Source: a phage. Taken from it: a stretch of DNA of 64,000 nucleotides. Numbering within the stretch: the stretch's first letter is position 1; every line of letters begins with the position of its first letter. The notes beneath the pieces were generated by a model that was not told where the DNA came from, searched no databases, and worked only from the letters and a program-made list of their open reading frames with translations. Shown here in pieces: positions 40,519 to 48,751 of this stretch. Location of the stretch: the sequence record OZ470804.1. One strand, 5' to 3'. The position numbers were made by a program, and so were the translations under genes.

Positions 40519-41304
40519 ATGGGTATTGTAAAAATCATCAAAGGCGATATCTTTGACGCCTTTGATAAAGGTAAGTTTGATATCATTGGGCATGGTTGCA
40601 ACTGTATGAATTTCATGGGTGCAGGTATTGCAGCAACTATTTCTAAGCGTTATCCAAAAGTGTATGATACTGACACAGAAGTTTACCTGTTTGCAGGTGG
40701 CATCCGTCACAAACCCTGTGAGAATTTACTAGGTAATTTCTCTGTAGCACGCTTAAAACAAGGTCGTATAGCTAACCTTTACACCCAACTTCATACTGGT
40801 AAAGATGCCCGATACAGTGCTTTAGAGTCATCTTTGAAACAACTTAACAGATACTGTGAAGTTAACCAGTTGAAGAAAGTCGGTCTGCCTATGATTGGTG
40901 CAGGTATCGGTGGACTTGACCCTCAAGCTGTCACAGTTATCATCAATCAGGTTATGAAGAGCGTAGATGTTTATCTGTATGTCTATGAAGCAAAAATGTA
41001 TAATGAGTTACACTCAGGTTGGAAGAACTACTGTGAACCAGAATACTTTGCAGGTGTAGCAGTGTTCATAGATAACGCAGTTACCCTCTTCAGACGAAGA
41101 AAAGGTAAGATACATCAAAGTAACCCTCCGGTTGAAAAGATGTCTCTAAGTAACGCTCTAGTTACCCACCTGTCAAAGAGCAATCACAGAATTGCAGTAA
41201 CATTTGGAAGTGATGCAGATGCTTATATCTATGCAAGAACTGATGAGGATATCGAGACGGTTTTCTCTTCACCAGAGCTTACCTTCTTAGACGCAAAGAA
41301 CTAA
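40519..41304 (+). CDS. macro-domain (ADP-ribose binding/processing) protein
   Basis: IKGDIF..FDIIGHGCNCMNFMGAGIAATISKRYP and VGLPMIGAGIGGLDP match macro-domain signature; about 110 aa C-terminal extension. Confidence 0.65.
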   Translation: MGIVKIIKGDIFDAFDKGKFDIIGHGCNCMNFMGAGIAATISKRYPKVYDTDTEVYLFAGGIRHKPCENLLGNFSVARLKQGRIANLYTQLHTGKDARYSALESSLKQLNRYCEVNQLKKVGLPMIGAGIGGLDPQAVTVIINQVMKSVDVYLYVYEAKMYNELHSGWKNYCEPEYFAGVAVFIDNAVTLFRRRKGKIHQSNPPVEKMSLSNALVTHLSKSNHRIAVTFGSDADAYIYARTDEDIETVFSSPELTFLDAKN

Positions 41305-41369
41305 GAAACTTCGTAGTATATTCACAATAGACTAAGCCTTTCTTATCTGGTAAATTTTTCAGGTAAGGA

Positions 41370-41600
41370 GGGCTTTTTCATTTCAGAATTGTGCAGGTAT
41401 ATTTCTATAGAGAAATCTGTAGAGGAAATTTTGAACTCCAAAGAGAAAATTCATTTTCAAACTGTGCAGATAATCTCCAAAGGACTTTTTCATTTTCAAA
41501 ACGTGCAGACCCCGCTCAGGTCGGGCAAGAAAAATCATTTTAGAATTGTGCAGGTAGGTGGGTGCAGGTGTGGATGTCGCCATTTCTCACAAGGCTACCA
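41370..41600. repeat. iteron-like array (4-5 copies of TCATTTTCARAAYTGTGCAGRT)
   Basis: copies near 41380, 41450, 41495, 41540 plus GGGTGCAGGTG; about 45-55 bp spacing. Confidence 0.6.
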
Positions 41601-41733
41601 CATCTGAAAAGAAAAGTCAACAGAAAAATTTGTAGCGGATTGAAAAATAATTCTTGATTGTAGTTCTGTTTTGTGGTAGTCGCGTGCGCCCGTTTCATTA
41701 CAGTTTTTTGCAAAAATATTTTTAAAATTCCTA

Positions 41734-41762
41734 TTGACTCTCTGACTATGGTTATTTAGTAT
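41734..41762 (+). promoter_or_regulatory. sigma70-type promoter
   Basis: TTGACT-17 bp-TAGTAT in AT-rich region upstream of first small gene. Confidence 0.55.
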
Positions 41763-41812
41763 TTGCATCAGACAGGCAAACAAGCCTACTTCCTAAACTG
41801 GAGATTTAAAAA

Positions 41813-42019
41813 ATGATTTACAGCCGTGAATTGATGGTTACAACCAACGTTAATACAAAGGTAAAACGTTTTTACATGCAAGTGTGCGGCGCATGGCGTA
41901 GAATATCAGAAGCTGATTATTGCAACTATGTAGAAACGGCAATCAATTCTAATTGCTACCTTACGAAGAATACAAAGCGACATATAAAACAGACAGCGGT
42001 TTACTATTACGATATATAA
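41813..42019 (+). CDS. small hypothetical protein (array gene 1)
   Basis: 68 aa ORF preceded by conserved TAAACTGGAGATT RBS block. Confidence 0.5.
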   Translation: MIYSRELMVTTNVNTKVKRFYMQVCGAWRRISEADYCNYVETAINSNCYLTKNTKRHIKQTAVYYYDI

Positions 42020-42020
42020 A

Positions 42021-42109
42021 AAGTACTTTACAGGGGGCTTAAAAGCTGATATCTTAAGCCCCAGATAAAGAGCTTTACTAAATTAACCCTTAAACTAGGA
42101 GATTCAAAA
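42021..42109 (+). promoter_or_regulatory. leader cassette type A, copy 1
   Basis: AAGTACTTTACA, GGGGCTT..AAGCCCC hairpin, AGATAAAGAGCTTTAC, TAAACTAGGAGATTCAAAAATG. Confidence 0.65.
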
Positions 42110-42493
42110 ATGGCTTATCGTGCACCTAAATTCATCAACAAAGACAACTTTCGCAACGCACTGGAGAAGTCACTTGATGAAAATTTTAAAGGTAACATTA
42201 TCGTTGTTCACGCATTCAATTTTAAGTATGATGTAAACGGGAATAGAATCAACCATTACACAGCAACCATGTTAGATGGTACGCTATCAAGTGAAAAAGC
42301 TGTACTGAATGCACTTGCAGGACGTGGTAAAAACCTGATAAGATGCGATAAGAGACGTTATCAGGGTGGCGCATATGGTTATGATGATGCTGTTTACCAT
42401 CTTGAAAATATGGGCTATCAAGTAGAAAAAGCTGGAGCATCACAAATCATCGGCAGCGATGGTTATGTAACTATCTTCAAAATTAACAAATAA
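42110..42493 (+). CDS. small hypothetical protein (array gene 2)
   Basis: 127 aa ORF driven by type A cassette. Confidence 0.55.
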   Translation: MAYRAPKFINKDNFRNALEKSLDENFKGNIIVVHAFNFKYDVNGNRINHYTATMLDGTLSSEKAVLNALAGRGKNLIRCDKRRYQGGAYGYDDAVYHLENMGYQVEKAGASQIIGSDGYVTIFKINK

Positions 42494-42579
42494 AGTACTT
42501 TACAAGGGGCTTATAGTTCGATAAAGTAAGCCCCAGATAAAGAGCTTTACCACTCAATCCTAAATTGGAGAACTTAAAA
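42493..42579 (+). promoter_or_regulatory. leader cassette type A, copy 2
   Basis: same cassette with compensatory stem variant GGGGCTTAT..TAAGCCCC. Confidence 0.65.
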
Positions 42580-42837
42580 ATGGCTATTATCAAAAACGTT
42601 GTAATTACTGCAAAGACTCGTGATGACGCTCGCGTTATGGCTAAAAAGTTATGCGGGAAAGTGGTTGACAACGGAAAACAATCCGCTGTAAGGTGGAACG
42701 TGAAGTCGGATAAGCAATTAACCTTAAAACGTAATTCAAACAACCTTTTTAAAGGTGTAAAATCACTCGGTAAAGTGAACGTGTTTACCAAAAAAGGCTA
42801 TAAAATGCACTTATCATTAACTGGCAATTTAATCTGA
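42580..42837 (+). CDS. small hypothetical protein (array gene 3)
   Basis: start set to ATG 42580 by analogy with other cassettes; ORF-track start 42565 is TTG. Confidence 0.5.
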   Translation: MAIIKNVVITAKTRDDARVMAKKLCGKVVDNGKQSAVRWNVKSDKQLTLKRNSNNLFKGVKSLGKVNVFTKKGYKMHLSLTGNLI

Positions 42838-42839
42838 TA

Positions 42840-42925
42840 AAGTACTTTACAAGGGGCTTAAAAGTTGGTATCTTAAGCCCCAGATAAAGAGCTTTACCAC
42901 TAAATCCTAAACTGGAGATTCTAAA
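42840..42925 (+). promoter_or_regulatory. leader cassette type A, copy 3
   Basis: TTTACA-17 bp-TATCTT promoter-like spacing overlapping the hairpin. Confidence 0.65.
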
Positions 42926-43222
42926 ATGAAATTATCGAATAAAGTTCGTGAAAATCTAAGCAAGTTACTCAACAAAATTGATTTTATCGAGACATCAAGA
43001 AATAGTCATGATGTTATGGAATGGTTACACGGCAAAATAAAAGGCCGTCGTGTAGTGATTTGCTTATGGAATAGTTGCAGGGAATATAAAAAACCTGTAT
43101 TGCAAGTTAATATTTATGATGATACTTTTAAAAGTCCTGTAAAGTCTAAAAGCGATTTATTAGAATCCTATGAGATAACTGTAAATGGCAAAGTGTCACG
43201 TAAAGAGGAAACACCATGTTAA
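42926..43222 (+). CDS. small hypothetical protein (array gene 4)
   Basis: 98 aa ORF. Confidence 0.55.
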   Translation: MKLSNKVRENLSKLLNKIDFIETSRNSHDVMEWLHGKIKGRRVVICLWNSCREYKKPVLQVNIYDDTFKSPVKSKSDLLESYEITVNGKVSRKEETPC

Positions 43223-43548
43223 TGACTGGTATCACTGCAATCATTGCCATTTTCGCGCTATATAAGGCATATAAAGCCTATAATCTAGCAAATAAGGCAA
43301 TCACACAGCAGGTTAGCAATAACCTTGTAGAAAGCTTTCTAGGGCGTCTCAGTGATGAGCAAATAAAGCGGTTAGAAATGAGCTTCAGATTTCAATCAAA
43401 AACTTATCAAATCAGCGACATTTTCAAAGATGATTTTCAGCTAGTCGATGATTATAATGCTCTGATAAATGCTTTAAATGTCAGTGACTTAAAAGACTAT
43501 TACGCTGTAATTGTTCAAGAATTAAGCAAACGAAAAAATTTCTCTTGA
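43216..43548 (+). CDS. small membrane protein (array gene 5)
   Basis: N-terminal TM helix MLMTGITAIIAIFALY. Confidence 0.5.
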   Translation: MLMTGITAIIAIFALYKAYKAYNLANKAITQQVSNNLVESFLGRLSDEQIKRLEMSFRFQSKTYQISDIFKDDFQLVDDYNALINALNVSDLKDYYAVIVQELSKRKNFS

Positions 43549-43638
43549 TTTTAGTTTTAAAAACAAGTAAATTATCAATCAACGGGGAGGGAATGACCTT
43601 CCCCACTAAGTAAAGTCCTTAAACTAGGAGATTCAAAA
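43545..43638 (+). promoter_or_regulatory. leader cassette type B, copy 1 (promoter + leader hairpin + RBS)
   Basis: TTGATT-17 bp-TAAATT then GGGGAGGGAATGACCTTCCCC hairpin then TAAACTAGGAGATTCAAAAATG. Confidence 0.65.
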
Positions 43639-43911
43639 ATGTATACTACTAACAACGGTCGCACTCTAAACGTAACCCTACGCCACTATGTGAACGGTGT
43701 AATGCACTTCGAGGATTTACAAGCTGAACAGCACATTTTGGATTGGCAACTTGCAGGACTCCAAAAAACTGCTACCGGATACGGGAAAAAGATTCCAACT
43801 AGCTGGAAAGTATACTACGAAGGACGTTTGCGCAGAATTTATCAGGATGTATATAGCAATAGCGCAACAAGTTACATCATGGTAAAAGGTAAAAAATTAC
43901 ACTTAGTATAA
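43639..43911 (+). CDS. small hypothetical protein (array gene 6)
   Basis: 90 aa ORF. Confidence 0.55.
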   Translation: MYTTNNGRTLNVTLRHYVNGVMHFEDLQAEQHILDWQLAGLQKTATGYGKKIPTSWKVYYEGRLRRIYQDVYSNSATSYIMVKGKKLHLV

Positions 43912-43996
43912 AGTACTTTACAAGGGGCTTATAGTTCGATAAAGTAAGCCCCAGATAAAGAGCTTTATCACTCAATCCTAAATTGGAGATTCTAAA
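43911..43996 (+). promoter_or_regulatory. leader cassette type A, copy 4
   Basis: near-identical to copy 2. Confidence 0.65.
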
Positions 43997-44401
43997 ATGG
44001 CTATTAATAATCGTGAGTTATCAATCTTAAAAGCACGTTTGACCGTTAACCGGATTAATGTTATTACGTCGTCAGCACCTGATGAGACATTGCACAACAT
44101 TATCGGGAAGATTCAAAGTGTTATCTTAGACGTTGAAAGCGTAAAAAACTCATTGGCTGACGTTGCAGCAGGTATCACGCTAGACGGTGCACAATATGAA
44201 ATGGCTGACATGTTAGGCAAATCTAAGGTAATGAATAAAGAGCTTGATTTAAAAATGTTCCGCTTTGCCGTGAAAGTGTGGCTATCTGTCGAGTATGACG
44301 CAAATTTTGCAATCGCTGACTTTTTCGCAACATGGTTGCAACGTAATTTGACAAATCACGATTTTCGTGATGTCTGTGATGCAATTTATGCAGAACTCTA
44401 A
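43997..44401 (+). CDS. small hypothetical protein (array gene 7)
   Basis: 134 aa ORF. Confidence 0.55.
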   Translation: MAINNRELSILKARLTVNRINVITSSAPDETLHNIIGKIQSVILDVESVKNSLADVAAGITLDGAQYEMADMLGKSKVMNKELDLKMFRFAVKVWLSVEYDANFAIADFFATWLQRNLTNHDFRDVCDAIYAEL

Positions 44402-44410
44402 AAAATTTTG

Positions 44411-44502
44411 TTGACACTGGTTTTTAGATAGATTAAATTACACATCAACGGGGAGGGAATGACCTTCCCCACTAAATAAAGTCCTAAACTGGAGATTCTA
44501 AA
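44411..44502 (+). promoter_or_regulatory. leader cassette type B, copy 2
   Basis: TTGACA-17 bp-TAAATT then GGGGAGGGAATGACCTTCCCC. Confidence 0.65.
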
Positions 44503-44700
44503 ATGGCTATTATTAACGGTTTAACCATTGAAACTACACACATCAAAGATATCAAAGTTGGCGATATAGTCCTTTCCCACGGCGTAGAAAAAACTGTCAC
44601 TGCAAAGGATATCAAAGAGGATTCTTTCATGGGTAGAACTCTCTTCGGTGATTCTTATTGCTTAGGTTATCTTGCAGTTTTAAAAGTTGTCAAAAATTAA
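44503..44700 (+). CDS. small hypothetical protein (array gene 8)
   Basis: 65 aa ORF. Confidence 0.5.
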   Translation: MAIINGLTIETTHIKDIKVGDIVLSHGVEKTVTAKDIKEDSFMGRTLFGDSYCLGYLAVLKVVKN

Positions 44701-44706
44701 GTAATA

Positions 44707-44792
44707 AAGTACTTTACAAGGGGCTTAAAAAGTTGGTATCTTAATCCCCAGATAAAGAGCTTTACACAGTCCTTAAACTAGGAGATTAAAAA
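44707..44792 (+). promoter_or_regulatory. leader cassette type A, copy 5
   Basis: GGGGCTTAAAAAGTTGGTATCTTAATCCCC variant. Confidence 0.6.
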
Positions 44793-45041
44793 ATGATGAA
44801 TTATTTAAACATTCCCGACACTTGCAAACTGTTAACGCAACCAGAAAATTTAGGTAAGGCTTACCTATACCATATGCCAAATAATACGGCAAAAACTTAT
44901 AGTTACACTGTTAACCGATTCACGGCATACGCTGCAAAAAACGGTTACAAGGTTGTTACTCAAAAAGTAACACTGTTTACAACTGTTGAGGAACTCCCCA
45001 CGGTTGCAGTTAAACTGATTTTTTCAAAGAAAACTAAATAG
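44793..45041 (+). CDS. small hypothetical protein (array gene 9)
   Basis: 82 aa ORF. Confidence 0.5.
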   Translation: MMNYLNIPDTCKLLTQPENLGKAYLYHMPNNTAKTYSYTVNRFTAYAAKNGYKVVTQKVTLFTTVEELPTVAVKLIFSKKTK

Positions 45042-45126
45042 ATTTCTTTACACGGGGTTATCAAGCTGATAAGATAGCCCCAGATAAAGAAATTTATCAA
45101 ATAAATCCTAAACTGGAGATTCAAAA
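45041..45126 (+). promoter_or_regulatory. leader cassette type A, copy 6 (diverged)
   Basis: GGGGTTATC..GATAGCCCC stem keeps pairing despite sequence change. Confidence 0.55.
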
Positions 45127-45669
45127 ATGAAATGTTTTCACGGTACTACTCAAGAAAACTTTATCAACCTGATTAATAACGGTGATAAACCATCAGGCGC
45201 ATGGAATTGTTCTGATATGGATGGGAATTTTTACGTTTACCCAGAGAATAAAATCTATGGCGACGATGAGGAAGAAATAATCTTTGAAGGTATCCAGCAA
45301 GCTCTGGGCAATGCCACTATCACCGCAGCTTTTCAGATGAAAACTCAAAACATTGTTATCTTGGAACTTGAGATTCCAGAAGATGAGCTAAACGATGATT
45401 ATTCTTGTGATAATATGTCGAGCGTGGCAAGTTTTACAGAATATTTCGATTTAAATTGGATTAAAAAGGTTTACATCACTGAATTTAATGCTATGTATTC
45501 GCCTTTTTGTCTTCCTTCACTGGATAACCCAAATATGAATTATCTTGATGAGACATTAGAACTACTTGCTAAAAGTGTTCAACAATCGGACAGTATTCAG
45601 GTTTTTTGTGACATCATGGACACACTAACGGAAAACATCGCAGAAGAGGATTTAAAGAGCTTTTTCTAA
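45127..45669 (+). CDS. hypothetical protein (array gene 10)
   Basis: 180 aa acidic ORF followed by terminator. Confidence 0.55.
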   Translation: MKCFHGTTQENFINLINNGDKPSGAWNCSDMDGNFYVYPENKIYGDDEEEIIFEGIQQALGNATITAAFQMKTQNIVILELEIPEDELNDDYSCDNMSSVASFTEYFDLNWIKKVYITEFNAMYSPFCLPSLDNPNMNYLDETLELLAKSVQQSDSIQVFCDIMDTLTENIAEEDLKSFF

Positions 45670-45701
45670 AAACCTATGCAATCACATTATAAACACTATT
45701 C

Positions 45702-45721
45702 AGCCCCTTGTAGGGGCTTTT
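45702..45721 (+). terminator. intrinsic terminator
   Basis: AGCCCC-TTGT-AGGGGCT followed by TTT. Confidence 0.55.
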
Positions 45722-45735
45722 AAGAGGCTTAAATC

Positions 45736-45969
45736 ATGCTTACAACCGTTTATCTTATCCTTTCTATATGTAATGGTCATTCATGCGATTTTAAAGGGCT
45801 TGAAGAGTTTACAGGAAGTAAAGAAAATGCTATTCAAGTTTGCCAGATAGCGAGACAAGACTATCCCGCAAGTGATGATATTCAGTGTTACTTTAAGACA
45901 GAAGATGAAGACGGTATCTATTTTGACAGTGTAGATGGTCAGTATGAAATTATCATTGAAAAAGACTAG
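45736..45969 (+). CDS. small hypothetical protein (array gene 11)
   Basis: 77 aa ORF. Confidence 0.5.
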   Translation: MLTTVYLILSICNGHSCDFKGLEEFTGSKENAIQVCQIARQDYPASDDIQCYFKTEDEDGIYFDSVDGQYEIIIEKD

Positions 45970-46058
45970 ACAAGCCTGATAAAAATCTGTAAATTGTCAA
46001 TCAACGGGGAGGGGATGACCTTCCCCACTAAATAAAATCCTAAACTGGAGATTCAAAA
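45967..46058 (+). promoter_or_regulatory. leader cassette type B, copy 3
   Basis: TAGACA-17 bp-TAAATT then GGGGAGGGGATGACCTTCCCC. Confidence 0.65.
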
Positions 46059-46400
46059 ATGGCTTATGTAACCGTAATTACCGATAAAGCTGGCGCATCT
46101 TGGTCAACTCAAGTAAGCGATAAGATGTCACCTATGCAGTGCCTAAAATACTTTGAGCAATGGAACAAAGGCGAGGATGTCAGCCCCTTTCAAGTAATGC
46201 AGATTATCCATACAGATAACGAAGGGAAGAAAACTGTTTTGAATAGTGAGTACTACGCAACCAGATTTGAAACGAGATGTAAAGCAATGAAGCTCTTGCG
46301 TGAGTCTGGTTATTCTCATATTGCGGCAATAATCTGGGATGACTTGCTAAAAAGTCAGCGTATCAGCTATGTAAAACCTGAAAAAATATTCATCAGTTAA
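46059..46400 (+). CDS. small hypothetical protein (array gene 12)
   Basis: 113 aa ORF. Confidence 0.55.
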   Translation: MAYVTVITDKAGASWSTQVSDKMSPMQCLKYFEQWNKGEDVSPFQVMQIIHTDNEGKKTVLNSEYYATRFETRCKAMKLLRESGYSHIAAIIWDDLLKSQRISYVKPEKIFIS

Positions 46401-46432
46401 TCAATAACTTACAAAAAACTTTTAAAAAAGTG

Positions 46433-46461
46433 TTGACAATGCCCCTTGACATTGGTAACTT
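46433..46461 (+). promoter_or_regulatory. putative promoter with tandem TTGACA boxes
   Basis: AAAAAGTGTTGACAATGCCCCTTGACATTGGTAACTT. Confidence 0.4.
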
Positions 46462-46529
46462 TGTTCGAGGGGGTTTATCTAAAAGGGATTAACTTAAAAG
46501 ATTCTTTATAGATAAACTTAAAAAATTGC

Positions 46530-46622
46530 TTGCAATCAGATATCAAAACAAGTAAATTACTAATCAACGGGAGGCGATAACCTCCCCACTAAGTAAAGTC
46601 CTTAAACTAGGAGATTCAAAAA
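46530..46622 (+). promoter_or_regulatory. leader cassette type B, copy 4
   Basis: TTGCAA-17 bp-TAAATT then GGGAGGCGATAACCTCCCC variant hairpin. Confidence 0.6.
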
Positions 46623-47153
46623 ATGAACAAGTTCAAAGCTATCAACTTCATTCGTTCAAATAGTGTTATGTCAAAGCCTGTTAAAGACACCTATGAATTT
46701 CGTTGTAATGGTGTACATTTTGCAACAATCACCAAATCAGAAAACGGGGCTTATTACGTCCATCGTCGTAATGTTTCTACTGTTGTAGTTTCTCACTTTA
46801 TGCAAGCTGTCGCGGAACTTCTCCCGATGTTTTTAGGTCTTTACTTAGATGAGTGTAAAAACGTTTACAATCACGTTAAAAACCTTTTAAACAGTTATAA
46901 AATGGCTTACGAACGCTCTATCAAGTCCTTAAACAAGTTCTATAAAGCCCCTGCAAATACTGTATCAATGGCCTATGGCGTAGGTGGCTGGACTTTTAAC
47001 CTTTCCCTAGTGGAAGAAATCGAGCTTTATGATTTACGTCCTAATGGTTACTCTAAGACACTGGGAGAAGGTTTAACGTTCAATATCAAAAACTTAGAAA
47101 AAACTTTAAAAGATATTGAAAAAGATATTGACGAAACAATCAAAAACCTGTAA
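46623..47153 (+). CDS. hypothetical protein (array gene 13)
   Basis: 176 aa ORF. Confidence 0.55.
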   Translation: MNKFKAINFIRSNSVMSKPVKDTYEFRCNGVHFATITKSENGAYYVHRRNVSTVVVSHFMQAVAELLPMFLGLYLDECKNVYNHVKNLLNSYKMAYERSIKSLNKFYKAPANTVSMAYGVGGWTFNLSLVEEIELYDLRPNGYSKTLGEGLTFNIKNLEKTLKDIEKDIDETIKNL

Positions 47154-47243
47154 TTTGTCAATCAACGGGGAGGGAATGACCTCCCCCCACTACATAAAAC
47201 CCTTAAACTAGGAGATTCAAAAATGGTGATAAGAAAGAAGTAG
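47128..47243 (+). promoter_or_regulatory. leader cassette type B, copy 5 (orphan, drives only a 6-codon ORF)
   Basis: TTGACG-17 bp-TAATTT then hairpin then RBS then ATGGTGATAAGAAAGAAGTAG. Confidence 0.55.
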
Positions 47244-47245
47244 TG

Positions 47246-48110
47246 ACCATGTTAATAGCTTGTTAAAAAGATTAGACACTTGTTAGGAACTTGTTAATTA
47301 TCTTAACAAAATAACTCTTAAAAATTAACTTGTTAGCTCTTGTTAGTCATCTGTTAAGATTCTGTAAAGCCTATTCAGCACTTGTTAAGAAACTGTTAAA
47401 GCCTTGTTAGTTCTGTTAAGAATCTGTTAAGACCTTTGAAGAGTTGTTAAGAAGATGTGAGAGCTGTTAAGAGATTGTTAAGGATATTTTAAAATTTTGC
47501 AAAGGGGATGTTACAGGGATGTTAAGGGCTACCAAGCAGATATACATCTTCTACAGATATTTTTGAGTTCCTTCAAAGACCCTAAAAAATGACTTGATAG
47601 TCCTATTTTATAAAAATTTTAAAATTCTGAATAATTACCTAGACAGTCTTTTAAAAATACAGGTAGAAACAGGCTTATAAGATACCTTGTTAGTACCGTG
47701 TTAGACCTTGTGAGATAAGGTCTGTGAAGATATTCCTGTTAAGTTTGTTAAAACAGTCTATATAGAGGCTTAGTAATACCTAGTGAACACCTATAGAGAG
47801 TCACATAGCTTACATAGAGATTAAGAGGTGTATAGGAGCTTCTAAGAGTGTGTAGAGAGATGGTTAAGATGATTGTATAGGTTGTTTAGAAGGCTTGTTA
47901 GAAGAGTGTTTAGATGGCTATTTAGAAGGGCTATACAGAGGGCTATTAAGACCACTAGATAGTTACTAAGATACTATATAGTACTATATAACTATATAGA
48001 GAGTAAGATTAAGAAGGTTGTTAAGAAGGATAGATATTTTATTCACATATGATGGTGACCCAGAGGTTGGGACAACCGATAAAATTTTATAAAAAATATA
48101 AATTTCGTAA
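47246..48110. repeat. non-coding block of degenerate ~11 bp periodic repeats (YTGTTAAG / TTGTTAG / TATAG units)
   Basis: more than 20 copies of CTGTTAAG-like units between 47270 and 47480, further TAGAG/TTAAG/TATAG units to 48050; no ORF longer than 60 codons. Confidence 0.7.
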
Positions 48111-48137
48111 ATTTTACTCAATAAAAAGCCCCCGATT
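48110..48137 (-). terminator. intrinsic terminator (minus strand)
   Basis: AGCCCCC..GGAGGCT hairpin with plus-strand A-run, downstream of ORF 48158-48751. Confidence 0.45.
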
Positions 48138-48157
48138 AAGGAGGCTCTTAAGATATT

Positions 48158-48751
48158 TTAAATCAGTGTTTCCAGAACTGTTTTTAATGATGACTTGGTT
48201 GTCTGATAAAAATGAGTAAATCCATTGTTGTTATCAAATACCTGCATCATGATATCATCTCCCTTGATTGGGTACACTCGGATATCATAGTGAAAACCAT
48301 TAAAGACACAAGAACCACTACAGAATGCTCTAAAGTCATCCACTGAGATATACTCTTCATGACCTGTGATTTTTATACAAACACCTTTACTCGGTCTCTT
48401 AGGGTTGATATCTTCCATCACAGACATACTCTGTCCACCAAGAGATACCATAGTGACTACTTTACGGTTCTTCTGTCTAAAGTACATCTTAACTTTCTGT
48501 AAAGTGTCTTCATAGAACGGATAAGACTTCTCTACAAAGATTCCTTCAAGTGGCTCTTTACCATTTTTAACTTCTCTGTAACCACGTACTGCAAAAACAA
48601 TCTGTTTTAATCTGTCAAGACTTTCTTCAGAGAGTGCTTCTTGAGCATCACTCCAGTCAAGGACTAGATAGTTACCTTCAACATCTTTTAAGTTATCTTT
48701 TTCCATAACTATCACACCATTATCGTAAAACTTGGTAAGCTGGAACTGCAA
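48158..48751 (-). CDS. hypothetical protein
   Basis: 197 aa ORF. Confidence 0.5.
   Translation of the reverse strand: MQFQLTKFYDNGVIVMEKDNLKDVEGNYLVLDWSDAQEALSEESLDRLKQIVFAVRGYREVKNGKEPLEGIFVEKSYPFYEDTLQKVKMYFRQKNRKVVTMVSLGGQSMSVMEDINPKRPSKGVCIKITGHEEYISVDDFRAFCSGSCVFNGFHYDIRVYPIKGDDIMMQVFDNNNGFTHFYQTTKSSLKTVLETLI

Follow-up and report, generated by a model that had tools for sequence, protein, structure and literature searches.

The window analyzed here is a whole 64,000-nucleotide stretch of phage DNA (sequence record OZ470804.1). Felixounavirus genomes were its top matches, with 255 records matched, and judging by the sequence the source phage is a Felixounavirus (Felix O1-type, Ounavirinae). 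Between 41.8 and 47.2 kb lies an array of 13 small ORFs, here F1 to F13, with six type A and five type B cassettes between them. A BLASTP comparison with a family cutoff of E <= 1e-5 placed the 13 ORFs in 13 separate families, as expected from the original prediction that they are mutually dissimilar. A standard unit, composed of a predicted host-type promoter, an RNA hairpin, and a ribosome-binding site, was found before 11 of the 13 genes of this 5.4-kb region. It had been claimed that every small ORF lies behind a cassette, which was overstated: F5, at 43216, starts inside the 3' end of the preceding ORF, F11, at 45736, follows a different, terminator-like spacer, and both are without a cassette. 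For F1 (41813) the claim held in part, since this gene has its own promoter and the common ribosome-binding module but neither the type A nor the type B hairpin. The ribosome-binding module CCTAAACTGGAGATTCAAAAATG (variant CCTTAAACTAGGAGATTCAAAAATG), conserved over about 25 nt, was present in 11 copies with at most 2 mismatches, all on the + strand, from 41791 to 47223 (chance expectation, 0.01). A twelfth, more divergent copy precedes the ORF at 42580; all 12 are in the array, with none in the remainder of the 64 kb. The type A core CCCCAGATAAAGAGCTTTA was found six times (at 42059, 42531, 42878, 43949, 44746, and 45078; chance, 0.04). The type B core ATCAACGGGGAGGGAATGACC was found four times with at most 3 mismatches (chance, 0.00), and a fifth copy, with an indel, is at 46563. 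No copy of either core was detected outside the array in the rest of the 64 kb. These scans bore out the modular layout with two cassette classes.

All of the parts are on the + strand, and the promoters described below are predicted ones. The first, TTGACT-N17-TAGTAT (41734..41762), has no type A or type B hairpin after it; in ASO1A, XTG1, and KhF1, it is joined to a type B hairpin. A ribosome-binding module (41791-41812) then leads into F1 (41813..42019; 68 aa, Felix O1 ORF15 family, phrog_5293, unknown function). Type A cassette 1 (42020..42109) contains a -35 box, TTTACA (42027-42032), a -10 box, TATCTT (42050-42055), a three-tier hairpin (42020-42076; -21.0 kcal/mol, z -3.2), and a ribosome-binding module (42089-42109), and it is followed by F2 (42110..42493; 127 aa). 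In type A cassette 2 (42494..42579), the hairpin takes in the upstream stop codon (42491-42549; -21.6 kcal/mol, z -4.8), the promoter is TTTACA-N17-TAAAGT (42499-42527), and the ribosome-binding module is the variant CCTAAATTGGAGAACTTAAAAATG, which is followed by F3 (42580..42837; 85 aa when counted from the ATG after this module). Type A cassette 3 (42838..42925; hairpin 42838-42896, -22.1 kcal/mol, z -3.5) has the promoter TTTACA-N17-TATCTT with a TG extended -10 (42846-42874). It precedes F4 (42926-43222; 98 aa), which overlaps F5 (43216-43548; 110 aa) by 7 nt with no cassette between them. Type B cassette 1 (43545..43638) begins with the -35 box TTGATT (43545-43550), which overlaps the F5 stop codon, and continues with the -10 box TAAATT (43568-43573), a hairpin (43584-43604; -15.2 kcal/mol), and a ribosome-binding module (43618-43638) up to F6 (43639..43911; 90 aa).

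Type A cassette 4 (43912..43996; promoter 43917-43945; hairpin 43905-43972, -24.4 kcal/mol, z -5.3) is followed by F7 (43997..44401; 134 aa). Type B cassette 2 (44402..44502), where the ASO1A record annotates a promoter plus a "terminator," has the promoter TTGACA-N17-TAAATT (44411-44439; 10/12 consensus positions) and a hairpin (44450-44470), and it precedes F8 (44503..44700; 65 aa). The hairpin of type A cassette 5 (44701..44792; promoter 44713-44742, 18-nt spacer) is weakened by a mismatch (TTAATCCCC; z -0.8), and F9 (44793..45041; 82 aa) comes next. Type A cassette 6 (45042..45126) is a variant with the promoter TTTACA-N17-TAAGAT (45047-45075) and a hairpin (45038-45097; -25.1 kcal/mol, z -6.6) built on a 13-bp contiguous lower stem with GGGGTTATC/GATAGCCCC on top. 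F10 (45127..45669; 180 aa) and F11 (45736..45969; 77 aa) are separated by the cassette-free spacer (45670..45735), which has the hairpin AGCCCC..GGGGCT (45702-45718) followed by UUUU and its own Shine-Dalgarno sequence, AAGAGG. Type B cassette 3 (45967..46058; promoter TAGACA-N17-TAAATT, 45967-45995; hairpin 46006-46026, -16.6 kcal/mol) precedes F12 (46059..46400; 113 aa). An orphan promoter-like site, TTGACA-N17-TAACTT (46433..46480), overlapped by the inverted repeat CCCCTTG..CGAGGGG and followed by GTTTATCT, is conserved in phage Moogle. Type B cassette 4 (46520..46622; -35 TTGCAA, 46530-46535; -10 TAAATT, 46553-46558) has a shortened hairpin, GGGAGG..CCTCCC (46569-46586; -12.3 kcal/mol), and precedes F13 (46623..47153; 176 aa). 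The predicted count of five type B cassettes stood, but the fifth (47117-47222; -35 TTGACG, 47128-47133, inside the F13 end; -10 TAATTT, 47151-47156; hairpin from about 47167 to 47186) drives no full gene, just a six-codon stub (47223..47243). This stub is a deletion scar, and relatives have two further genes (F23 and F24) and a terminator at this site.

We then examined the cassettes in alignments. A promoter had been described for type B only, a limit that did not hold, as TTTACA-N17/18-TAnnnT was found in all six copies of the window, several of them with a TG extended -10. Across 58 distinct type A copies, only -10 positions 1, 2, and 6 (T, A, and T) were invariant in the loop; there were 11 variants of the -10 hexamer, and TG preceded it in 32 of the 58. 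Just 9 of 12 positions of the type A promoters agree with the consensus. The hairpin GGGGCTTA..TAAGCCCC of the original prediction is real, but its extent was underestimated. The full hairpin, a three-tier stem that spans about 58 nt with ~20 bp and includes the upstream stop codon, carries the -35 box in its middle stem and the -10 box in its apical loop. Folding gave -21 to -25 kcal/mol, with z scores of -3.2 to -6.6 for five of the six copies. In the stem alignment, 98.5% of the cells were paired, compared with just 29-60% in controls in which the 3' partner was slid by 1-3 columns. The proposed compensatory changes between copies were also recovered in the cassette alignment: three pairs change on both sides, a level reached by 0-1 of 500 shuffles, with 10 of 18 pairs never varying, and this covariation signal comes from few events in a set of related, highly conserved sequences. 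The pairs included 73 G.U and 3 A.C, which points to pairing on the sense strand. In type B, the -10 box was TAAATT in 63 of 71 copies, with a TTGACA-like -35 box. A gap of 10 nt separated the -10 box from the hairpin in 69 of 71, consistent with the earlier description of a promoter followed by a leader hairpin. This 8-bp hairpin would begin about 3 nt into the transcript. A search of Rfam gave no family matching the cassette hairpins.

By blastn, type A was found at 1376 places in 287 phage records and type B at 1161 places in 253. The architecture reaches Mooglevirus and Erwinia Kolesnikvirus. In Erwinia phage Tian and Citrobacter phage Moogle, the promoter-in-hairpin arrangement is kept and the stems and ribosome-binding module differ; the Tian promoters are TTTACA-N17-TAGTAT and TAATCT, with stems unlike type A. 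It had been proposed to check in related phages whether payload genes vary with the cassettes conserved, and this comparison came out positive, with 12 different gene arrangements among the 13 genomes compared. Cassettes make up 24% of the length, and 71 of 83 blastn alignment end-points fell inside them. Relatives have an extra 170-aa gene (F21) at the type A cassette 3 junction. A chimeric single cassette is present at the F9 junction, before F10, in SUT_S920, and another chimeric cassette precedes F12 in Felix O1; such cassettes mark junctions. Eight hairpin variants are each private to one genome, yet occur at two different positions there. Global within-genome homogenization was close to null for both type A (0.855 versus 0.851, p = 0.15) and type B (0.838 versus 0.834, p = 0.03). 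Assembly errors at the ~90-bp repeats could account for some of the differences in gene order among public genomes, notably in DE7.

No demonstrated function was found for any of the 13 payload genes, and F10 possibly has a weak ADP-ribosyltransferase-like fold. For at least 8 of the 13, some viable isolate lacks the gene; among these, F1 is absent from EcoM2, REP8, and SUT_S920, F2 from ASO1A and Felix O1, F3 from Felix O1 and REP8, F8 from Felix O1, F9 from 7 of 12 relatives, and F13 from ekra and MBP4696116. F7 was present in all 13 genomes compared, and F11 always traveled with F10 in them. The array shares a transcription unit with replication genes, and all of its members may be early genes. 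In Felix O1, expression peaks at 5 min for ORFs 16, 20, 21, and 22 and at 25 min for ORFs 17, 19, and 23, with no sorting by cassette type. A role of the array in host takeover or anti-defense is plausible.

The cassettes match the PeSL (promoter-early stem-loop) cassettes of T4-like myoviruses (Arbiol et al. 2010, PMC2839356; Comeau et al. 2014, PMC4122927). In both, a stop codon in AT-rich sequence is followed by sigma-70-type -35 and -10 boxes 17 nt apart, a stem-loop, a Shine-Dalgarno sequence, and an ATG. The stem-loop is of the G-run..C-run type (GGGG..CCCC) and sits over the two boxes, between them, or immediately past the -10 box. In each system the cassettes cluster where small ORFs of unknown function form a variable region, and comparisons of close relatives place the ends of indels and swaps within the cassettes. 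The -35 box TTTACA found here fits the T4/PST PeSL consensus TTTACW. However, this phage belongs to the Ounavirinae and is not T4-like, its type A hairpin is a longer, three-tier structure extending over both the stop codon and the -35 box, its ribosome-binding module is conserved over a longer stretch, and its hairpins have no U-tracts. In addition, promoter and terminator activity and mini-circle formation have been shown for RB49/phi1; the promoters of the cassettes here are predicted. A blastn search with the cassettes gave no sequence similarity to T4-type elements, and in the literature we found no report of PeSL cassettes in Felix O1-like phages and no transcript mapping for any of these phages. 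Start-associated sequences (SAS/ESAS) of Cluster K mycobacteriophages (Pope et al. 2011, PMC3203893) are also similar, in that a conserved Shine-Dalgarno motif lies a few bases upstream of many nonstructural genes of different families in one orientation, with an imperfect inverted repeat just upstream of about half of the SAS motifs. Unlike the cassettes, no promoter was described there, the consensus GGGATAGGAGCCC is absent from the window, and the authors' analysis gave RNA pairing little support, whereas pairing covaries in the cassettes. As in integrons, unrelated small genes are each bounded by a repeated, recombination-prone element, and gene content differs between close relatives; here, however, each unit has its own predicted promoter, and exchange presumably occurs by general homologous recombination.

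We therefore consider it likely that the array is a variable region of accessory genes in a Felix O1-like phage and is made of PeSL-type expression cassettes. Each cassette begins at the stop codon of the preceding gene. It supplies a predicted host sigma-70 promoter, a hairpin whose placement with respect to this promoter is constant, and a standard module of Shine-Dalgarno sequence and spacer up to the ATG of the next gene. Because the type A hairpin encloses the promoter, it would form only in RNA reading through from upstream. In such RNA, it would most likely insulate the units, either by attenuating read-through or through cleavage that would give the message upstream a protective 3' hairpin. 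In type B, a near-consensus promoter followed by an early-transcript hairpin has the geometry of a 5'-end stabilizer. The role of the hairpins may be attenuation, processing, or RNA stabilization, and the original suggestion of processing or stability elements seems reasonable from the sequence.

An alternative that we rate as unlikely, with a modest chance of being right, is that the hairpins are true terminators, the cassette being a terminator and then a promoter and each gene its own transcription unit. T4-type PeSL stem-loops cut lacZ expression as strongly as rrnB T1, and WebGeSTer called the type B hairpins terminators in the ASO1A record. However, no U-tract follows any cassette hairpin, as originally noted, and no cassette scored as an intrinsic terminator in our scan, although the same phage uses canonical hairpin-plus-U terminators at 41334-41375 and 45702-45721. 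In Felix O1, TransTerm detected no terminator in the interval from t13 to t23. Moreover, the type B promoter precedes its hairpin, so that efficient termination there would shut off the cassette's own gene. Because the hairpins have no U-tracts, it is doubtful that the "terminator" half of the PeSL model applies here.

T7 RNase III sites are irregular hairpins about two helical turns long that have an internal loop, located between early cistrons and without a U-tract, and cleavage there would leave a stabilizing 3' hairpin. The type A hairpin, also irregular, intercistronic, and without a U-tract, would resemble them, with its ~20 bp and 3x3 internal loop. This likeness and the strong, conserved, sense-strand structure of type A favor a single polycistronic early operon in which type A is promoterless and acts only in RNA processing or stability, with starts at type B only. 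We regard this reading as improbable: TTTACA-N17/18-TAnnnT is in every type A copy, the other loop bases vary around the invariant T, A, and T of the -10 box, and the promoter geometry persists in phage Tian despite different stems. The T7 sites, unlike type A, are not known to contain promoters.

It is still less probable that the inverted repeats act at the DNA level, by binding a phage repressor (early-promoter shutoff) or a recombinase, with RNA folding irrelevant. The repeats do overlap the promoters in an operator-like manner, type A has two local 12-bp palindromes (TAAAGTACTTTA and TAAAGAGCTTTA), and a possible GGGG..CCCC-binding protein was also raised by the PeSL authors. However, the excess of G.U over A.C is not expected of a duplex site, the stem changes are compensatory and not sequence preserving, and the variant at 45038-45097 has lost both palindromes and extended the long-range pairing. 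Type A, type B, and a third class in phage Tian are also unrelated in stem sequence and loop size. Selfish or neutral intergenic repeats spread by recombination with no expression role, which the many near-identical copies and those fronting nothing (e.g., the stub at 47223) might suggest, are very improbable, as all copies are on the coding strand and exactly framed by stop codon and ATG, their -10/-35 positions and Shine-Dalgarno sequence are conserved, and the architecture persists in three genera despite sequence turnover.

In addition to their proposed function as PeSL-type expression cassettes, these elements would provide portable homology because the same ~90-bp units recur between unrelated genes. 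Gene gain, loss, and reordering at such units have already been described for T4-like phages. Recombination between cassettes would delete, insert, swap, and reorder genes in Felix O1-like phages, and the expression signals would stay intact.

A megablast search with the region from 41700 to 47300 matched 255 phage records, essentially all of them Felix O1-like myoviruses of ~85 to 90 kb, with Escherichia phage EcoM2 as the top match (94% identity). The window is thus from a Felixounavirus, of the subfamily Ounavirinae, and the array is the counterpart of ORFs 15 to 23 of Felix O1. In annotated relatives, the array is flanked on one side by a Macro-domain "phosphatase" gene (40519 to 41304 in the window; Pfam Macro, E = 5e-7) and on the other side by a minus-strand gene block. 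The genes immediately upstream, at 39.7 to 41.3 kb, adjoin one another with no spacers in between, and a terminator scan revealed a strong canonical terminator at 41334 to 41375. Therefore, the array is distinct from its surroundings. Four direct repeats of ~28 nt (..TTTTTCATTTTCAnAAnTGTGCAG) were also found at 41369 to 41553, between this terminator and the first array promoter at 41734. Further along, 22 tRNA genes are clustered on the plus strand at 58065 to 63555, as expected of Felix O1-like phages.

The original prediction described small, unrelated ORFs behind near-identical cassettes of two types, A and B, and the counts agreed with it. Eleven copies of the ribosome-binding module (up to 2 mismatches) were found between 41791 and 47223, all on the plus strand, against 0.01 expected, and a 12th, more divergent copy lies ahead of the ORF at 42580. 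All 12 have GGAG, an 8-nt spacer, and ATG. The array has six copies of the type A core and four of the type B core, along with a type B indel variant, whereas no copy lies elsewhere in the 64 kb, and the 13 ORFs represent 13 distinct BLASTP families. A cassette had been placed ahead of every ORF. This is true for most of them, but the ORFs at 43216 and 45736 have none, the first ORF has its own distinct promoter, and the last type B cassette is followed by nothing more than a 6-codon stub.

It had also been suggested that a comparison with related phages could reveal variable payload genes behind conserved cassettes, and this is what we observed. Payload families and the type of cassette upstream of each were mapped in the homologous region of 12 Felixounavirus genomes (~90% identity) and in the window. 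The 13 genomes displayed 12 arrangements, drawn from ~20 payload families. With the window payloads numbered F1 to F13 in order, F7 is directly followed by F12 in Felix O1, where F8 to F11 are missing; F9 is missing in 7 genomes and F13 in 2. Two families, F21 (170 aa) and F22, were found in 10 and 4 genomes, respectively, the former being absent from the window. At least 8 of the 13 payloads are lacking in some isolate.

The boundaries of these differences lie in the cassettes. Although they make up 24% of the length, 71 of the 83 array-internal blastn alignment end-points, which are not independent events, were at most 6 nt from a cassette, and most of the others were 7 to 21 nt off a cassette edge; at least 10 distinct indels were bounded by cassettes. 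Adjacent alignments overlapped over the cassette, a signature that arises when two flanking cassettes of one genome are both matched by a single cassette of another. The cassettes at junctions are chimeric. For example, the single cassette before F10 in SUT_S920 matches the F9 cassette of the window through the hairpin, except for a stem mismatch of the window copy itself, and its last 27 nt are identical to those of the F10 cassette of the window. The same payload was found with different hairpin variants across phages, and the same variant ahead of up to eight different payloads. Eight hairpin variants were private to a single genome and yet present at two positions there. Only these eight point to a general homogenization of cassettes within genomes (concerted evolution), and a global identity test was nearly null, so we make no such general claim.

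The stub at 47223 to 47243 was left by a deletion, specific to the window, that removed two further payload genes (F23 and F24), their terminator, and the adjacent spacer. The left end of the deletion is in the ribosome-binding module, and its right end is in noncoding DNA at a patch of microhomology. Since the terminator is deleted, the last type B promoter now reads directly into the repeats of a ~900-bp noncoding stretch (47227 to 48026) located between the array and the minus-strand genes. This stretch is dense in TGTTAAGA-like 8-mers, nearly all on the plus strand, with six exact copies at 47352 to 47472; Tandem Repeats Finder gave a period of 31 and 4.2 copies. The 8-mers are followed by tandem repeats of TTTAGAAGGCTA (5.5 copies, 47885 to 47951) and ACTATATAG (3 copies, 47972 to 48000). 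Judged by its repeats, this iteron-like stretch could be an origin, a packaging site, or a genome terminus. Escherichia phage vB_EcoM_DE7 has a permuted order (F2, F7, F8, F10, F11, F35, F12, F6, an F3/F5 fusion, F13, F24), with junctions mostly in cassettes; either the cassettes mediated a real rearrangement or the genome was misassembled at the ~90-bp repeats.

Type A cassettes had been considered to be without a promoter, a view that the sequences contradict. In a consensus scan, all six type A cassettes of the window had TTTACA and, after a spacer of 17 nt (18 nt in one copy), TATCTT, TAAAGT, or TAAGAT; in four of the six, the -10 is extended by a TG. We then aligned the 58 distinct type A sequences from the window and the 12 related arrays. 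TTTACA-N17/18-TAnnnT was present in 58 of 58, with 11 different -10 hexamers and with TG at -15/-14 in 32. The apical loop of the type A hairpin was variable except for three invariant columns, which correspond to the first, second, and sixth bases of the -10 hexamer, the pattern that would be expected from selection on a sigma-70 -10 element. For type B, the -10 box is TAAATT in 63 of 71 copies, the -35 box is TTGACA, TTGCAA, TAGACA, or TTGACG with an N17 spacer, and the distance from the -10 box to the first G of the hairpin is exactly 10 nt in 69 of 71 copies. Both cassette types therefore have sigma-70-like boxes ~17 nt apart and, at the level of a consensus match, predicted promoters. The upstream stop codon lies within a conserved ATAAAGTAC in type A and in or beside the -35 or -10 box in type B. 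Transcription would start ~7 nt past the -10 box in both types, which is around the A of CCCCAGAUAAAG (near the A of CCCCAGATAAAG) in type A and ~3 nt ahead of the stem (2 to 3 nt before GGGG) in type B. At 46433 to 46480, the long spacer that precedes the F13 type B cassette contains what looks like an orphan promoter (TTGACA-N17-TAACTT, with a TG upstream). It is overlapped by an inverted repeat, CCCCTTG..CGAGGGG, followed by GTTTATCT, and is kept in Citrobacter phage Moogle.

A type A hairpin was indeed found, but RNA folding showed it to be far larger than first described, with ~20 bp over 58 nt. Its lowest tier, UAAAGU/GCUUUA, includes the UAA stop codon of the preceding gene. Next come a bulged A and CUUUA/UAAAG, then a 3 x 3 internal loop (CAA/AGA), and on top GGGGCUUA(U)/(G)UAAGCCCC, for a geometry of 6 + 5 + 9 bp. 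The stem covers the promoter spacer and the -10 box, whereas the type B stem begins 10 nt past the -10 box. Folding energies were -21.0 to -25.1 kcal/mol, with z values of -3.2 to -6.6, for five of the six window copies; the copy at 44701 to 44792 has a stem mismatch and folded poorly. In the 58-sequence alignment, 98.5% of the stem cells were paired, and when the partners were slid by 1 to 3 columns as a control, pairing fell to 29 to 60%. Three pairs were changed on both sides (G-C to U-A twice and C-G to U-A once, in 8 cells), which was matched by 0 to 1 of 500 shuffles, in agreement with the compensatory changes reported initially. Because 10 of the 18 pairs never vary, this covariation evidence is positive but not deep. 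The type B hairpin is a simple stem of 6 to 8 bp, with -12 to -17 kcal/mol in the window and as weak as about -8 kcal/mol in relatives. It occurs in 31 distinct sequence variants, and the stem is kept in all those folded.

We also considered that the type A repeat could act as duplex DNA, as an operator, given its two local 12-bp palindromes (TAAAGTACTTTA and TAAAGAGCTTTA). This was rejected on the basis of the asymmetry between G.U and A.C pairs (73 versus 3) and of the variant at 45038 to 45097, in which both palindromes are lost and the lower stem forms 13 contiguous pairs. Canonical Rho-independent termination was rejected as well, since, as predicted, neither hairpin type is followed by a U-tract and none scored as an intrinsic terminator. 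The terminator scan gave only two terminator-like sites in 41200 to 47600, neither at a cassette, and an Rfam scan of 41200 to 48200 gave only two chance-level sRNA matches, none at a cassette. Some of the GenBank records examined present type B as a promoter plus a "terminator," a label that has weak grounds, and none of them annotates a type A promoter.

As an RNA structure, the type A hairpin would exist only in read-through RNA, since the predicted start lies downstream of its 5' arm. T7-type RNase III sites are irregular ~20-bp hairpins with an internal loop, located between early cistrons and cut by the host RNase III; the 6 + 5 + 9 bp and the 3 x 3 loop of type A fit this geometry, so that type A may be a site of this kind. 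In read-through RNA, the type A hairpin might act as an attenuator, or its cleavage might provide the upstream message with a hairpin at the 3' end. The type B stem, near the predicted 5' end, could protect the mRNA; 5' stem-loops with the geometry of that of ompA shield E. coli mRNAs from 5'-end-dependent decay.

In the ribosome-binding module, the (A)GG of the Shine-Dalgarno sequence has a complementary CC(U) ahead of it, and pairing of the two would close a loop of 6 nt, UAAACU (for example, at 41791 to 41812 and 43618 to 43638). Among 156 modules, the extra T and the extra A were both absent in 82, both present in 74, and found singly in none. This may reflect a weak hairpin partly occluding the Shine-Dalgarno sequence or merely two linked alleles. 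The module of Erwinia phage Tian (CCCTTATAAAGGAATCAAAAATG) is different but follows the same logic, with CCUU..AAGG versus CCUC..GAGG.

Pfam gave no matches for the 13 payloads, which fall into 13 separate PHROG families, all of unknown function. For F10 and F13, homologues were found solely on contigs of Ounavirinae size. A fold search with F13 was uninformative. Homologues of F13 carry PF26821 in precomputed Pfam annotation and the local Pfam scan of F13 found nothing; this family may be newer than the local Pfam copy. By RT-PCR of Felix O1, expression peaks at 5 min for ORFs 16, 20, 21, and 22, but only at 25 min for ORFs 17, 19, and 23. This timing is not sorted by cassette type, and the idea that types A and B are temporal classes was rejected.

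Matches to the type A cassette were found at 1376 places in 287 phage records, and matches to the type B cassette at 1161 places in 253 records. The number of places per record agrees with the cassette numbers in arrays, so the cassettes appear to be limited to the array region. The matches reach Citrobacter Mooglevirus and, at 75 to 80% identity, Erwinia Kolesnikvirus. In Erwinia phage Tian, TTTACA-N17-TAGTAT or TAATCT lies within a three-tier hairpin with the top stem GGUGUUUA/UAAGCACC, and a third hairpin class (GGGGUUAcGGUUAU..) occupies the corresponding place with respect to a box reading TTGCAA or TTTACA. That the geometry is kept in Tian despite sequence turnover argues for a function.

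In its sequence features, the array matches point by point the promoter-early stem-loop (PeSL) cassettes of T4-like phages, whose features include promoter and terminator/attenuator activity and the formation of mini-circles by recombination between neighboring cassettes (PMC2839356, PMC4122927). As in PeSLs, the element starts at the upstream stop codon with AT-rich sequence, has sigma-70-like boxes ~17 nt apart (here as a consensus match only), and ends with a Shine-Dalgarno sequence and the start codon of the next gene. A stem-loop with a G-run and a C-run (GGGG..CCCC stems) lies between or over the boxes or just past the -10 box, and its position defines subclasses. The -35 box TTTACA found here fits the T4/PST PeSL consensus TTTACW. 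Also as in PeSLs, the cassettes are clustered in a variable region of small nonessential ORFs, and indels or replacements between close relatives end in them. PeSLs have been described in T4-like myoviruses, whereas the window is from a Felixounavirus; this difference limits the described distribution and not the mechanism. In the literature library that was searched, we found no paper naming both PeSLs and Felix and no Felixounavirus transcriptome. In the Felix O1 genome paper, type A appears as a repeat of 57 bp and the type B promoter as one of 39 bp, both listed just as direct repeats, and neither promoters nor terminators are predicted from t13 to t23. A second analogue is provided by the start-associated sequences (SAS/ESAS) of Cluster K mycobacteriophages, in which a 13-bp consensus, GGGATAGGAGCCC, lies 3 to 7 bp upstream of the start codon (PMC3203893). 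No match to this consensus with up to 2 mismatches was found in the window.

Beyond the cassette anatomy, conservation, covariation, and rearrangement end-points observed here, a wider reading can be proposed, although we consider it rather unlikely: type A would be a dual-use sequence, and the whole array an integrase-free "plug-and-play" system of gene capture. As DNA, type A would be a sigma-70 promoter; as read-through RNA, it would fold into the ~20-bp hairpin and become a substrate of RNase III or of a nuclease encoded by the phage, so that any polycistronic RNA would be split into single-gene messages with protected ends. With a small covarying hairpin that half covers the Shine-Dalgarno sequence, one factor could silence the whole array, and the repeated units would make each gene exchangeable by homologous recombination across the Ounavirinae.

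Until now, descriptions of PeSL-type cassettes have been limited to T4-like phages. The presence of the same architecture, with unrelated sequence, in three genera of Felix O1-like phages suggests a recurrent solution that allows virulent phages to harbor accessory early genes, and to trade them, while the expression of neighboring genes is undisturbed. Felix O1-like phages are widely used in typing and biocontrol of Salmonella and E. coli. For these phages, the cassettes mark insertion-tolerant sites of the genome and offer ready-made expression signals, and they bound a pool of ~20 dispensable early genes that are candidates for host-takeover or anti-defense screens.
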